Shown here: piece by piece, positions 36,735 through 45,755 of the stretch | How the letters are laid out: each line of letters starts with the position of its first letter | Numbering within the stretch: position 1 is the stretch's first letter | Assembly (NCBI GenBank): GCA_049606035.1 | Contig: JBMYVD010000001.1 | Coordinates: forward strand, 34,244 to 98,243 | Length of the DNA: 64,000 nucleotides | DNA from: Candidatus Poseidoniaceae archaeon | Lineage (GTDB): Archaea > Thermoplasmatota > Poseidoniia > Poseidoniales > Poseidoniaceae | Direction: 5' to 3' | Notes under the pieces: model-generated | Databases searched by the model: none | Seen by the model: only the letters and a program-made list of their open reading frames with translations | Told to the model about the DNA's origin: nothing | Program-made: the position numbers and the translations under genes

Positions 36735-38303
36735 TCACTCAGGGATGTAGTATAATTCCACTGAACCTGTTCCAAGGCTAATTGGCTGACCGACGATAAT
36801 GTTCTCAGCAACACCGGTTAGATTGTCTCTCTCACCGATAATTCCAGCCTTCAGCAGGTGGTTAACAGTAACTTCGAACGCTGCACGAGCAAGGATTGAG
36901 TGCTTAGTTCCAGATACACCGTGTCGTCCAATTGCTCTAACTTCACCTTCGCTGGTCATTACGTCTGCAACCATCAGAAGGTGACGAACGTCAACTTCTA
37001 GACGTGCTCCATCAAGAGTTGCCTGCAGTTCGTTAACGATTGCTTGCCTTGAAGCTTCGATACCTAAGTACTCGTAAATCTCGATGATGTTGTTGGTATA
37101 GGTACGTGACCTGTCAATACCTTCCATGTCTGAGATTCTTGCCAAGTTGCTTCCAATTGTAGAGAGATAATACTCTCCAGTCTTGTCGTCAAGTTGTACG
37201 TTTGCACGCTCGATGTTAGGCACACCCTTTAGACGCATGTCACGGATTTTGTCTTCTAATTGTAGCAATTCAGTGTATGAAGGTGGGTTCTCTGCCAAGG
37301 TCTTCATGTCCTCTTCGGTCTGAATACCTGGAATCAATGTAAGGGTTGACGGGTTCTTTTCCTTGTCAGCCTCTACATACAATCTTAGAGCACGCTCAAG
37401 TTTGTCTTTTACTTCAGCAGGTGTCATACCTTTCTGCTTCAAGTTTCCTTTCTTCAGTTTTAGTACAAGCCTTCTTTGAGCGACGTCAGTGTCGATATCT
37501 GCAATGTTCACTGTAGTTGTTATTTCAATTGCCGCAGCCAACTTCTTTGCTGCATCGGCAGATTGGCTATTTTCTCCCTTTAGACGAATTGTCATTGTTG
37601 GAGTGTTTGGTACCTTTCTTGCGTCTACAATCTCAATAATTCTAGGAAGACCTTGGGTTACGTTGACTGTTGCTACACCCGCATAGTGGAAAGTACGCAT
37701 AGTCATCTGAGTACCAGGTTCTCCAATCGATTGTGCAGTAATGATTCCTGCAGCCTCGTATGGGTCGATTAGAGCCATTTCTTGTGCACGACCTGCTTCT
37801 GCGACAAGCGCTTCAGCTTGCTTCTTGGTCAGCTTCGTCATCTCTCTTGCGTGAACAGCCTCAGTCAAATCGTGAATTGTTTGCTGGGAGAATTTAACTC
37901 CAGCATCATCTGCTGCTGCCTTGATTGACTTGAACACAGCATCATCTGCTAACTCATCGTCATAGATTGCTGGAATTCCATCTGCATTCATCTCCGGAGT
38001 ATAAGCTTCCAGTTCTTGGACCGTCTTTGCTGTGCGTCGACGGCGAGTACCACGGCGTAGGCGTACGGATGTTGTCGCTGAATTATCGCTGGTTGAATCG
38101 CGGCTTGGAGATGCAGCACCGGAAATAATCCCATGAATTCTTGCAGCAGTGTCGGAATCAGTTTCGCAAAATTGTGCGATCTCCTGTGCTGTTAGAATCT
38201 TGACGTCATCCCACTTGCGGTCATCTGCCAACTTGTGTGCAAATTCCTCAGGGACTAACATATCCATGAGTTTCTTCTTTGTTGCGCTCTTTACTACCAT
38301 CAC
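36735..38303 (-). CDS. rpoA2: RNA polymerase subunit A'' (Rpo1C) with about 130-aa N-terminal HhH-like extension
   Basis: [16 protein letters not shown] and conserved A'' C-terminal region; N-terminal [23 protein letters not shown] extension. Confidence 0.9.
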
Positions 38304-41300
38304 AAATCACCTCCAGCTGCTGCTTCGGAATCACCCTCATCATATCCGAGGTCGAATTCTTTGTCGCCTCTGTCAATGTATACTTCTTCCTTGGTCTTGG
38401 TCGGCCCGTCTGTACCTAGAGCCTCATCCACAACTACGTCGATGTTGAATGGCTTTCCATGTACGCCACGGCTTGGGTCGATTCCATCTTCTCCATAAGA
38501 GAACTGGATAATTCGATCTGCAGTATTTCTCACAGAGAGGTTTTCGTCATCGAATACCTTGAGGTCATCCATAGCGTTGATGAGTCTTCTCTGCATGTAT
38601 CCGGACTTACTTGTACGAACCGCTGTATCGACCAGTGATTCCCTTCCAGAAACTGACAGCATGAAGAACTCTGTTGGTTCAAGACCACGCTTGAATGAGG
38701 AGGAAATGAATCCCTTCTCAGTTGCACCAAGTCCACCACGCTTGAAGTGCGGTAAAACACGCTGGTGATAACCACGTTCTAGACGTGCACCACGAACCTT
38801 TGCTTGTCCGATACTGCCTGCCATCATGGTCAGGTTGTCCATTGAACCTCTCGCACCAGAAATCGCCATACCTACAGCGGCATTGGAGTTACCAGGGTGG
38901 TTCAATTCCTCCTTAGCAACGTCACCAGCAGCTTGCTTACCTTGGTCTAGGATGACCATGATGTTCTCTTCCAGTGTTTCCTTTGGAGTTCTTCCTGGGC
39001 GTGTTTCATAGTTTCGTCCGTCCTTTCCGAACTTATCTAGTTCTGCACGTACCTCTGCACGGGCTTCTTCATTGTGGCGCTCAATTTCGCTTAACGCTTC
39101 CTCAGACAGATCTTCGTCGTCAATTCCAGTAGTGAAACCTAAAGAAGTACAAGCACCGATTGAGAGTCTTGTGAACTCGTCAAGGAATCTTGCACCATCG
39201 GTTGGTCCATTAGTTTGGACAATTGCATCTAGAAGACGTCCATCTTCAGCACCGATTGCACGCTTGTCTAGGGTACCTGAAACTTTCCCATTCTTGACAA
39301 CTACGTCGTCATTTGAACGGCTTCTAAATCTCAAGTGAATGTTCTCTGGTATGATTACCGATACCAAGTCTTCACCCATGAAGTACTCTCCTTCGGGACC
39401 CTTGTGGACTTTAGGTAGTGCTCCGGTGTATCCGATATTTCCTAGCATTTCGAGACCATGTCTCTTGGAGATCTTTGTCTCTGGCCTGGATAGTAGGTAA
39501 GCACCGGAAATGTGGTCGTGAATACCACCGATAACTGCACCACCATATCTTGGAGTCAGGATGTGCTCCTGAACACGCATCAGAATCTTAGCTTCAGCAC
39601 GTGCTTCTTCTCCTTGGATGACGTGGAGGTTCATCTCGTCACCATCGAAATCAGCGTTGTATGGAGTACAAACCGCTAGATTGAATCTGAAAGTGTGACC
39701 TTCCATAACTCTGACTTCGTGAACCATCATCGACATTCTGTGCAGAGATGGCTGCCTGTTGAAGATTACAACGTCGCCATCAATCAAGTGTCTCTCTACG
39801 AGTAGACCTGGTTTTGGGTTGCCGTTCATGTCTAGTGTAGACAGACGGTCTTCAACACGAGTTCTCTCTCCCCATTCGTTGTCGGGGCTGCCACAGTGAG
39901 GACATGCTACCTCAAGATGCTCAGGGAATGGAGAATCTGGGTTTGCCAGTTCATACTTCCAGCGATGGTGAAGTACAGCCCGAGGGTCATCTTCGGAAAG
40001 TGGGTTTCCATCGATGTCTTCACCACGTAGGTTTGCTAGAGTTGCTCTCTCATCGATTGCATAGGAGACCATCTCCTCTCCGCCTGCCATAGCATCTTCA
40101 CGGGAAACGAATTTCTTGACAACTAGTCCTGGGAGGAAGTTAGGTGCTGGCATAACAGAATGAAGGTCAAACCTTTGAGTGGTTTCTTCCATACATTCGG
40201 GGTTGTGACATCTGAAACCTGCATTGATTAGCCTGCTTCTTTCGTTTATTCTTACACGACGCCTGTCACCACGAATAACATAGTTTACACCAGGGTGCAC
40301 TTCAGGACCACGTAGAATCATCTGACGCATCTGCTCACGGTTACGGGTTGTAACTCTGATTGGGACAGTTAATTCCTTTGCAATCTTTGTCGGTACTCCA
40401 ACTTCGTTAACACCTAGGTAAGGGTCTGGTGAAATAACAGACCTTGCACAGAAGTTTACACGCTTACCGGACAGGTTGGAACGGAATCTCCCTTCCTTAC
40501 CCTTTAGACGCTGAGTCAGAGTCTTCAGAGTTCTACCGGATCGGTGTCTTGCTGGTGGAATACCGCTGGTTTGGTTATCGAAGTATGTTGTAACGTGGTA
40601 TTGTAGTAGTTCCCAAAGGTCCTCAACAATCAACTGTGGCGCACCAGCGTCACGGTTTTCACGAAGTCTTTGATTGATTCTCAATACGTCAACTAACTTG
40701 TGAGTCAGGTCGTCCTCAGACCTGTCACCAGAATCTAGTGTGATAGAAGGTCTAACGGTGATTGGAGGAACTGGAAGAACCTTCAAAACAATCCATTCAG
40801 GCCTGTTTTCCTTGTGCATTCCTAAGAAAATTAGGTGCTCTTGAGGAATTCCTTGTAGCCATTCACGGATATCACGAGCGTTCAACTTTCTCTCAGTTGC
40901 CTTCGCACCACCTTGAGCGATGATGTGTTCCTTGAATGTTGTTGGCTTGTCGAGAACAATTTTTCCTTGCTGAGCATTACAGTGCATACAAATTGTCCTT
41001 CTTGCTTCTGAAGTCTTCTTCTCGATTTCCTTGATAATCTTAGAGAATTCAGTTGATCCAACACCGTGCTTCAAGATGATGTCGTAAACTCTCTTGCGGT
41101 AGTAATCTTGCTCAGATGGCTCATCTTCGTTTGTCATACCTGGAGCTGTTCCACCTGCACTGTGTAGCAAAATCTTGCTGCATGAGTTGCAAGTAGCCTT
41201 CAGAGCTGTCTTGATTAGGTTTACGAAACCAATGTGGATAACCGGTAACTCAAGTTGTATGTGTCCAAAGTGACCAGGGCTTTCGTCATACTTACAGTTG

Positions 41301-41503
41301 TCAGTTGGACACAATAGACCAGGCTCGATAACACCCATATGAGGGTCCATCAATCCTTGTCTGTATGCGTGACCATCGTCCTTGTATGTGTCTGCAGTCT
41401 TAACCTCAACAGAAGACATCTTGCGAATCTCTGTTGGGTCCATCAGGCTAAAGCGGATGCTTGCGATTCTCTTCGGAATCATTGTTGTGCTATTTCTGCT
41501 CAT
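38300..41503 (-). CDS. rpoA1: RNA polymerase subunit A' (Rpo1N), 1067 aa, with about 140-aa 4-Cys insertion
   Basis: N-terminal zinc motifs, [23 protein letters not shown] catalytic loop. Confidence 0.95.
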
Positions 41504-45111: not shown

Positions 45112-45125
45112 GGTATCACCTCAGC

Positions 45126-45755
45126 TCAGTTGCCCTCCACGATTAGTCTGTAAGCAACCGAAACACCAGCGGATGGTGAAGGTCTTACTACCTTGAGAAC
45201 ACGGTCTGCAAGCCATCCTGCGGGTAGAGGAATGTGCTCTTCATCGTCTGTTGACGCTGAGTCATGTGCTCTTTCAGTGGTTTCCTTAATCACTTGAACA
45301 ACTGGATCGGTAATCAGAATCTTTGGAAGAAGTTCCTTAGCAAGCCTTGACTCACCGGTTTCTGAATCGGTTGTCAATAGACCCCAAGGAGCGAGTTCTT
45401 CTTCCTCACTCTCAACTGGTACTAGTTCCTGGTGAGGTACAAGAACGTGGTTCAGAACGTTGAACTTGGTACCTGCCAAGTCCATGTCATCGTCATCGAG
45501 TGCTTTTCTTGAAATAGTGATTTTTCGGCTTCTTCGCTTCTGTCTGCGCTGACCTAGTTCTGCAAGGGCATTCATTGCGCCGGTGAAAATTTCATCGTCT
45601 TTTGAGACACCGAGAACTGACGCAATCTCGTCGGCCGGCATGGCCTTGATATCTGTCATGTTTCGGTCTGTTGCAAGTTTGTGAGCATATTCTTCTGCTA
45701 TGCCCATTTCCATCAAACGCTTCTTAGTTGCCGACTTTACTACCAAAAAAAACAC
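45126..45755 (-). CDS. rpoH: RNA polymerase subunit H (Rpb5-like C-terminal domain) with about 120-aa N-terminal extension paralogous to the RpoA'' N-terminus
   Basis: C-terminal HVLVPHQEL..LPKILITDPVVQ..VLKVVRPSPSAGVSVAYRLIV; N-terminal [23 protein letters not shown]. Confidence 0.8.
   Translation of the reverse strand: MFFLVVKSATKKRLMEMGIAEEYAHKLATDRNMTDIKAMPADEIASVLGVSKDDEIFTGAMNALAELGQRRQKRRSRKITISRKALDDDDMDLAGTKFNVLNHVLVPHQELVPVESEEEELAPWGLLTTDSETGESRLAKELLPKILITDPVVQVIKETTERAHDSASTDDEEHIPLPAGWLADRVLKVVRPSPSAGVSVAYRLIVEGN

Follow-up and report, generated by a model that had tools for sequence, protein, structure and literature searches.

Subunits H (RpoH, or Rpo5) and A'' (RpoA'', or Rpo1C) form the lower jaw of the archaeal RNA polymerase (RNAP), and both cross-link to downstream DNA (PMC2847245). 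PMC3906176 equates archaeal RpoH with the C-terminal domain of Rpb5 without any N-terminal extensions; archaeal Rpo5 does without the ~130-residue jaw domain of Rpb5, and the positively charged groove that remains beside the clamp head is occupied in Sulfolobales by the separate subunit Rpo13, in eukaryotes by the Rpb5 jaw, and in Thermus by an insertion in β′ (PMC2675907). Here we analysed a 64,000-nucleotide stretch of a Candidatus Poseidoniaceae archaeon (GenBank assembly GCA_049606035.1, contig JBMYVD010000001.1, positions 34,244 to 98,243; hereafter the 64-kb window), in which rpoH and rpoA'' each begin with a copy of the same N-terminal module. We are highly confident that in the Poseidoniales both lower-jaw subunits gained a module of ~62 residues and five helices with a (HhH)2/SAM-like fold (HhH, helix–hairpin–helix), that this module represents an unannotated family joined to each subunit by a highly charged, partly basic linker of 27–57 residues, and that the two copies are old paralogues under strong purifying selection.

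The eukaryotic Rpb5 jaw is likewise an extra domain N-terminal to the Rpb5/H assembly domain, and sits at the lower jaw beside the downstream DNA (PMC2675907; PMC2847245). The module bears no sequence relation to that jaw (PF03871), and a Pfam search of RpoH at E ≤ 1 returned nothing besides Rpb5_C and one spurious acidic match. Where Rpb5_N, of ~130 aa and alpha/beta structure, packs rigidly against the enzyme, the Poseidoniales module has 62 aa, is entirely helical and hangs on a long charged tether, and a paralogue of it is present on A'' as well. Rpo13 of the Sulfolobales and Desulfurococcales resembles the module in being a lineage-specific, small helical addition to an archaeal RNAP, but it is a separate helix-turn-helix subunit found in Crenarchaeota, whereas the module is duplicated and fused to two subunits; a profile of the module searched against all PDB chains, including Rpo13 of 2WAQ and 4AYB, gave nothing below E = 1.

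The C-terminal domain of the bacterial α subunit (αCTD) is a small helical (HhH)2/SAM-like domain, present on a flexible linker in two copies per enzyme, which makes DNA contacts at UP elements and serves regulators as a landing pad, the HhH-type repeat AR2 of NusA among them. The likeness to the module is limited to fold class and tethering: αCTD is bacterial, C-terminal on the α dimer and present as identical copies, whereas the Poseidoniales modules are diverged paralogues at the N-termini of H and A''; sequence similarity between the two was not detectable, and no RNAP α chain appeared among the PDB profile matches. The best structural matches of the module lie instead in NusA (AR1/AR2), XPF/ERCC1, FANCM/FAAP24 and Hef (template modelling (TM) scores of 0.66-0.76), whose acidic or degenerate HhH pairs mediate protein–protein contacts; these occur in other protein contexts, and the module is not a member of their sequence families. 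Viral proteins aimed at the polymerase jaw are also known, T7 Gp2 targeting the β′ jaw of the host RNAP. ATV ORF145/RIP provides a precedent for a small viral protein directed at the DNA-binding channel or jaw of the host polymerase (PMC5123050, PMC8448823). Neither shares a domain with a polymerase subunit, whereas the putative viral proteins described below carry a copy of the polymerase's own appendage and may contact RNAP through it. We class the module as a lineage-specific accessory domain on a multisubunit RNAP. Its nearest functional analogues are αCTD, Rpo13 and the Rpb5 jaw, but by sequence tests, and by position or architecture, it is a member of none of these families.

RpoH and RpoA'' open with paralogous modules

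Both genes lie on the minus strand of the window, about 7.5 kb apart: rpoH at 45126..45746 (206 aa from a probable TTG start, within an open reading frame (ORF) at 45126-45755) and rpoA'' at 36735..38300 (521 aa from an ATG, within an ORF at 36735-38303). The N-termini of the two products align without gaps at 27 identities in 51 positions (53%; BLASTP E = 4e-13), and both open with MVVKSATKK. In six-frame tblastn searches of the 64-kb window, either extension found the other as its sole match (E = 5e-14 and 2e-13), with no third copy and the next best alignment at E ≥ 0.24. Together with fixed signatures specific to each paralogue, these results bear out the homology proposed in a first-pass annotation of this DNA, which had put the shared segment at about 50 aa; the folded module is longer, at ~62 residues in five helices.

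The H-type module (residues 1-64, 45555..45746) consists of a basic N-terminal helix and an acidic helical core, as judged from its similarity to the A'' copy and a conservation table of 45 distinct sequences, while the A''-type module (residues 1-62, 38115..38300) is defined by a structural model, by its structural matches and by the ratio of nonsynonymous to synonymous substitution (dN/dS). A charged linker and then the canonical subunit follow in each protein, as the first-pass annotation had described. The RpoH linker (residues 65-91, 45474..45554) comprises RRQKRRSRKITISRKA and then an acidic stretch, with 9 K/R and 5 D/E, and carries the motif G.RRR...S.KITI..KA.DD, conserved across 101 sequences; the RpoA'' linker (residues 63-119, 37944..38114) begins with a Ser/Thr/Asp-rich stretch, continues into a 16-residue segment and ends in an acidic stretch, with the motif T.VRL.R....R...K....L..Y conserved across 71 sequences.

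The canonical RpoH/Rpb5 C-terminal (assembly) domain, with its stop codon, occupies 45126..45473, residues 98-205 of the protein matching Pfam Rpb5_C (PF01191; 38.5 bits against a cut-off of 23.5). The canonical A''/Rpo1C body (trigger loop, jaw and cleft), again with its stop codon, occupies 36735..37943, residues 144-469 matching Rpb1_5 (Rpb1 domain 5, PF04998; 173 bits). Pfam searches with both full proteins (E ≤ 1) assigned no family to either extension. Solved archaeal H chains (78-82 aa; those of M. jannaschii and T. kodakarensis among them) align only from about residue 92 of RpoH, and solved A''/Rpo1C chains (391-397 aa) from about residue 125 of RpoA'', which corresponds to chain residue 6, at 1.2e-85 and with a 12-residue trigger-loop motif conserved. 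Because the solved chains align only beyond the extensions, ~91 residues of RpoH and ~119 residues of RpoA'' are extra, and on these alignments the extensions are genuine additions with respect to all solved archaeal H and A'' chains. Compared with the solved archaeal H subunits of 78-82 aa, the assembly domain itself also has a ~35-aa acidic insertion (ETTERAHDSASTDDEEHIPLPAGW...) within Rpb5_C, at RpoH residues ~124-181.

Distribution across the Poseidoniales

A pattern search of GTDB with one genome per species gave at least 456 confirmed stretches, from which 80 A'' loci were kept. These range from 100% to 69% identity over the module, 77 of the 80 species-level loci start with MVVKSATKK, and all derive from Poseidoniales metagenome-assembled genomes (MAGs), covering the Poseidoniaceae (Marine Group IIa, MGIIa) and Thalassarchaeaceae (MGIIb), or from unclassified or mis-binned marine MAGs; the module of the window's A'' is 100% identical in several MAGs, including one MGIIa-K1 MAG. 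A full-length RpoH search returned 965 homologues, the best 120 of which measure 195-219 aa with full-length coverage, and when metagenome contigs were scanned with degenerate DNA for A''-type starts, at least 120 loci came up, at least 100 of them A'' genes. Both extensions are thus conserved order-wide, as seen in the A'' loci and the RpoH homologues. Their description in the first-pass annotation as lineage-specific appendages is consistent with all named matches in these searches being Poseidoniales. Public records name the proteins only 'subunit A''' and 'RpoH/Rpb5 C-terminal domain-containing protein', leaving the module unrecognised by annotation, and a literature search found no published description of the H and A'' extensions.

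Start codons and selection

Extensions of this kind could in principle be artefacts of annotation or assembly, whether through mis-called starts, through chimeric contigs or through a recombination or attachment site held in common with integrating elements, and two observations would fit: many database matches are truncated or frameshifted fragments, and the listed ORFs start at GTG codons that lie a few codons off. The rpoH gene, which the first-pass annotation began at a GTG (MFFL...), most likely starts three codons downstream at the TTG at 45746 (MVVKS...), 8 nt after the Shine–Dalgarno (SD)-like sequence GGGGTG (45755..45760, minus strand). For rpoA'', the likely start is the ATG at 38300 and not the GTG at 38303: this ATG overlaps the rpoA' stop codon by one base (TGATG) and is preceded by the SD sequence GGAGGTGAT inside the 3′ end of rpoA' (38306..38314, minus strand), which is conserved in relatives. 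The same start and the same arrangement of SD and overlap recurred in all A'' relatives inspected.

The fragments have ordinary causes. Stand-alone small proteins carrying the module (~50-115 aa), which appeared in the first protein search, were rejected because context look-ups show them to be fragments: many of the public 'proteins' that contain the module (P0001-P0120; L001, L002) are contig-end truncations with adapter-derived tails (…LSLIHI, …CLLYTSPSPRD) or frameshift splits, the frameshifted polished long-read assemblies with split module proteins have broken rpoB and rpoA' genes too, and the module comes directly after rpoA' in every fragment context looked up.

Selection points the same way. 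Among the 77 species-level A'' genes, dN/dS is 0.089 over the module and 0.005 over its codons 1-13, the latter at a synonymous divergence (dS) of ~1.2; comparisons over the A'' module give dS of ~1.2-1.9 with dN near 0, and Ser5 is encoded among relatives by AGC, AGT, TCA, TCC and TCG, that is, from both of its codon families. Free variation at synonymous sites alongside fixed amino acids places the conservation in the protein, and this rules out that the shared N-terminus is a DNA-level repeat, an att site or a recombination cassette. Both copies are under strong purifying selection. The first-pass annotation had noted that true start codons lying downstream would undo its proposal; this does not hold, as MVVKSATKK is conserved in the 965 RpoH homologues, the 77 of 80 A'' loci and 100 or more metagenomic A'' genes, and a downstream start or an assembly chimera is likewise ruled out by the conserved start, the SD sites, the overlap and the protein-level conservation. 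With the same start and architecture in hundreds of independent assemblies, with SD sites and translational coupling in place and with synonymous sites free to vary, the artefactual explanation is refuted, and we give it virtually no credence.

Predicted fold, charge and hairpins

An AlphaFold2 (AF2) model of the module, built on a 34-sequence alignment (mean predicted local distance difference test (pLDDT) 79.8), has five helices at residues 6-13, 18-25, 30-34, 38-45 and 49-62, and in the model of a virus-like homologue the same five helices reach pLDDT values over 90. Its best PDB structural match is FANCM (4bxo_A; TM 0.76, rmsd (root-mean-square deviation) of 1.7 Å, probability 0.99), followed by the C-terminal acidic repeat of NusA (1wcl, TM 0.72), Hef (1x2i, TM 0.72) and the SAM domain of Ste50 (TM 0.71), with UvrC, XPF and the RadA N-terminal domain also among the matches. 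The predicted arrangement of helix–hairpin–helix, connector helix and helix–hairpin–helix is that of the (HhH)2/SAM-like topology (SCOP a.60 class). The term 'HhH-like' in the first-pass annotation therefore holds for the predicted fold and does not extend to the sequence family: none of the 34 module sequences matched Pfam above threshold, HhH families (HHH, HHH_5, HHH_6 and others) included, and the Gly hairpins are only partly kept. Membership of a known family was rejected on these Pfam results and on the profile search against PDB sequences described above.

Both paralogues show next to no variation at module residues 1-13, 21, 22, 24, 25, 27 and 28. Seven further distinctions are specific to one or other paralogue and fixed at 100% across the order (10 K/R, 13 D/E, 26 D/T, 29 K/N, 30 W/M, 33 V/I and 45 C/L), which points to a duplication of long standing after which the copies specialised. 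The net charge is +3 over residues 1-13, and residues 14-62 form an acidic core of about -4.7. In hairpin 1, Gly15 is found in 100% of H copies, 44% of A'' copies and 96% of virus-like copies; hairpin 2 reads E46-T47-D48 in A'' (80-100%) and G-x-S in H. The modules thus lack the canonical DNA-binding HhH motif, with its Gly-hydrophobic-Gly hairpins in both repeats.

These properties cut both ways for a straightforward alternative, that the modules bind DNA non-specifically. On their tethers, a pair of HhH-type domains with basic linkers would grip the downstream duplex DNA at the lower jaw and, in the manner of the eukaryotic Rpb5 jaw, Sulfolobales Rpo13 or the bacterial αCTD, aid open-complex formation or processivity, and viruses would simply reuse a handy DNA-binding domain. 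The (HhH)2-like fold, the retention of Gly15 in H-type and virus-like copies, the charge of the first helix and the Arg/Lys-rich linkers all suit DNA binding, and both H and A'' adjoin downstream DNA (PMC2847245; PMC2675907). They have to be set against the acidic core, the E-T-D sequence of the A'' hairpin 2, the lack of Gly in hairpin 1 of A'' in about half of species, and a near-absolute invariance of 13 residues, Ser5, Ala6 and Thr7 among them (dN/dS 0.005), that exceeds the usual needs of backbone contacts.

Module-bearing proteins of virus-like elements

A profile search over every one of 1.84 billion representative proteins (E ≤ 1e-3) found 209 proteins with the module, and the only recognisable cellular proteins among the matches inspected were RpoH and A''. 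In about 48 of the 150 best clusters, from which the non-polymerase clusters were picked by hand, the same module (MVVKSATKK...) heads unrelated proteins (P0162, P0168, P0170, P0174, P0176, P0179, P0186, P0192, P0197, P0225, P0233, P0235 and others; loci L083, L084, L086-L089, L092, L095, L096, L101, L123, L128, L132 and L133). One family of ~215 aa, for which a query with a single member gave 204 proteins with family members in the top ~80 rows, contains the motif [FD]xGLGSLF twice, the second copy forming the extreme C-terminus of a predicted disordered tail, and it keeps a fixed position between ERCC4 and FEN genes in three diverged large elements (L092:10001-10672, L095:10001-10657 and L096:10001-10681). 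Its AF2 model (pLDDT 79, predicted TM score (pTM) 0.71) has a beta-rich body with no meaningful PDB match by Foldseek. Other module families measure ~320-337 aa and ~285-295 aa, and there are a ~185-aa 'AWERKW' family and a 1292-aa ORFan.

Two proteins combine the module with recognisable domains. P0170 (L088:1012-3567, 851 aa) carries C2H2 zinc fingers, an H-type module that is internal (residues 93-160) and not N-terminal, and an AAA_15/AAA_21 ATPase; P0168 (L087:314-895, 193 aa, on a 970-bp contig) couples the module with one cyclin repeat of the TFIIB/TFB kind (Pfam TFIIB at 1e-5), and is possibly an element-encoded TFB-like factor equipped with the polymerase's own appendage. Both are DNA-related and in that respect agree with the DNA-binding alternative. 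Among the matches inspected, the exhaustive profile search revealed no ordinary host DNA-binding regulator with the module, however, and in the virus-like proteins conservation is concentrated in residues 1-36 and hairpin 2 is not conserved, both of which count against DNA binding.

The module genes lie on ORFan-dense, co-directional contigs, several of 61-122 kb, next to genes for class II ribonucleotide reductase (RNR), PCNA, ERCC4 and FEN nucleases, N4/N6 and C5 methylases, nucleoside deoxyribosyltransferase and UvdE. Apart from the ERCC4–FEN arrangement, these contigs share only the module with each other and with the host window, and the codons of their module copies are as diverged as those of host copies. 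Magroviruses have genomes of 65-100 kb with a sliding clamp, several nucleases and, in group B, RNR (PMC5434244), and the gene content of the contigs resembles these replication modules. No structural genes (capsid, portal or terminase) occurred within the ±10-kb stretches around the virus-like module genes, and IMG/VR and INPHARED (tblastn), BFVD (fold search) and PHROGs (20 neighbouring proteins) yielded no match except one thymidylate-synthase-like hit.

The virus-like copies are mostly A''-like, with Trp30 in 69%, and a minority are H-type, for example the L088 copy with 63% identity to H against 40% to A''. This distribution, and the complementary fixed differences between the paralogues, would suit a second alternative, in which one H-type and one A''-type module would join as an (HhH)2 heterodimer (cf. 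XPF-ERCC1 and FANCM-FAAP24) into a strap that stabilises or regulates the flexible lower jaw; A''-type copies carried by virus-like proteins would undo this strap by taking the H-type module as their partner. The domains of the FANCM type that lead the structural matches are obligate heterodimer domains, and both tethers are anchored on the same jaw. Pairing of this kind is a special case of docking to a partner and not an independent explanation, and in its specific form we think it improbable.

A proposed docking role

The first-pass annotation had left it undecided whether the appendages bind DNA or RNA or recruit factors; the evidence leans towards recruitment or docking. We tentatively propose, at a confidence that stops somewhat short of probable, that the modules are tethered protein-docking handles with one conserved partner, rather than classical DNA-binding HhH domains. 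An invariant face, made up of the basic first helix MVVKSATKK[KR]LM[DE] together with H22, R28, D32 and K34, would bind this partner near the downstream-DNA channel. The partner may be a site on the polymerase, such as the groove of positive charge lying between H and the clamp head, or else the sister module or a general factor, and the basic linkers could touch DNA. Virus-like elements would have copied the module, mostly in its A'' type, onto the N-termini of dozens of unrelated proteins, which would thereby have the same partner within reach, and with it a way into the host transcription machinery or a means of competing there. We favour docking because of the acidic core, the degenerate hairpins and the invariance of the 13-residue helix, non-basic residues included, because of the paralogue-specific fixed residues and the lack of ordinary host regulators among the matches inspected, and because many unrelated virus-like proteins reuse the N-terminal half of the module. 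That it docks a partner, and that viruses exploit it, are steps that we infer from the presence of a tethered module at the jaw.

Several points weigh against this interpretation. The Foldseek E-values of the module matches are weak (0.3 or more), as the domain is short, and the sub-threshold Pfam matches of the 34 modules are split between HhH families (HHH_5 at 0.005 and HHH_6 at 0.031, one sequence each) and the helix-turn-helix of sigma-70 region 4 (Sigma70_r4_2 at 0.011 or weaker, six sequences). The tally of cellular proteins is one of representative proteins, so that further host carriers are possible. Since neither structural genes nor virus-database matches were seen, 'viral' is what we infer from gene content. 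The fold class, moreover, is best known for duplex DNA binding, the site adjoins downstream DNA, and both first helix and linkers have basic character, which makes simple DNA binding a strong alternative; we take it seriously as a possibility, while doubting on balance that it is the correct one.

The occurrence of one module both on the polymerase and on virus-like proteins suggests a docking handle copied by viruses. In the furthest-reaching form of this idea, which we put forward as speculation and consider rather unlikely, viruses hijack the docking handle of Marine Group II: copies of the lower-jaw appendage at the N-termini of dozens of different effectors, the TFB-like cyclin protein and the ATPase among them, would bring these to the site that the polymerase's own module uses. 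There they could take the place of the resident module or form a pair with its sister, and thereby redirect or shut down host transcription.

The RNA polymerase operon and its surroundings

The RNAP operon runs on the minus strand of the window in the order tRNA-Lys, rpoH, rpoB, rpoA', rpoA'' and an L30e/L7Ae-family gene. The tRNA-Lys(UUU) gene (45796-45871, ARAGORN) is found on the same strand, 49 nt upstream of where rpoH starts, and may be co-transcribed with the operon; no obvious promoter was seen in the gap between them. An unsplit rpoB (41500..45111, 1203 aa) separates rpoH from rpoA' (38300..41503, 1067 aa), whose stop codon overlaps the start codon of the A'' module and whose product ends in an acidic tail directly before the rpoA'' start. 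In RpoA' residues ~430-560, the Pfam match to Rpb1 domain 2 is split by a stretch with two Cys pairs (RCHNPEC..., ACPHCG...), which suggests an inserted zinc ribbon.

Downstream of rpoA'' and the L30e/L7Ae-family ribosomal protein gene (36396-36695, minus strand), a 294-aa protein without a Pfam match (35482-36366) takes the place of the usual NusA/S12/S7 genes. It is followed at 32025-35444 (minus strand) by a ~1100-1150-aa protein with Asp-rich, thrombospondin type 3-like repeats, a membrane anchor at its C-terminus and a tail of PAMPNMNAQ repeats; relatives have it in a syntenic place downstream of their rpo operon (L001:7986-11426, L002:8806-12099). Divergent from the operon, at 46123-47484 (plus strand), is a 453-aa fusion of a class I methyltransferase (PrmA/MTS-like) with a biotin/lipoate protein ligase.

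Implications

The extensions contradict the textbook picture of a bare archaeal RpoH in one of the most abundant archaeal lineages of the surface ocean, Marine Group II. After the Rpb5 jaw, Rpo13 and the Thermus β′ insertion, they would be the fourth independent elaboration of the same polymerase site, and the first to be built as flexible tethers, like those of the bacterial αCTD. That the same module is common to polymerase subunits and mobile elements is an unusual and potentially important twist, and if viruses do turn it against their hosts it would represent a domain-level 'self-mimicry' route of viral control over a cellular RNA polymerase. Through the virus-like link, the interplay of virus and host at the polymerase becomes open to testing in a group without cultures, and MVVKSATKK... 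provides a simple sequence marker by which candidate transcription-directed proteins can be found and orphan viral contigs assigned to Poseidoniales hosts.

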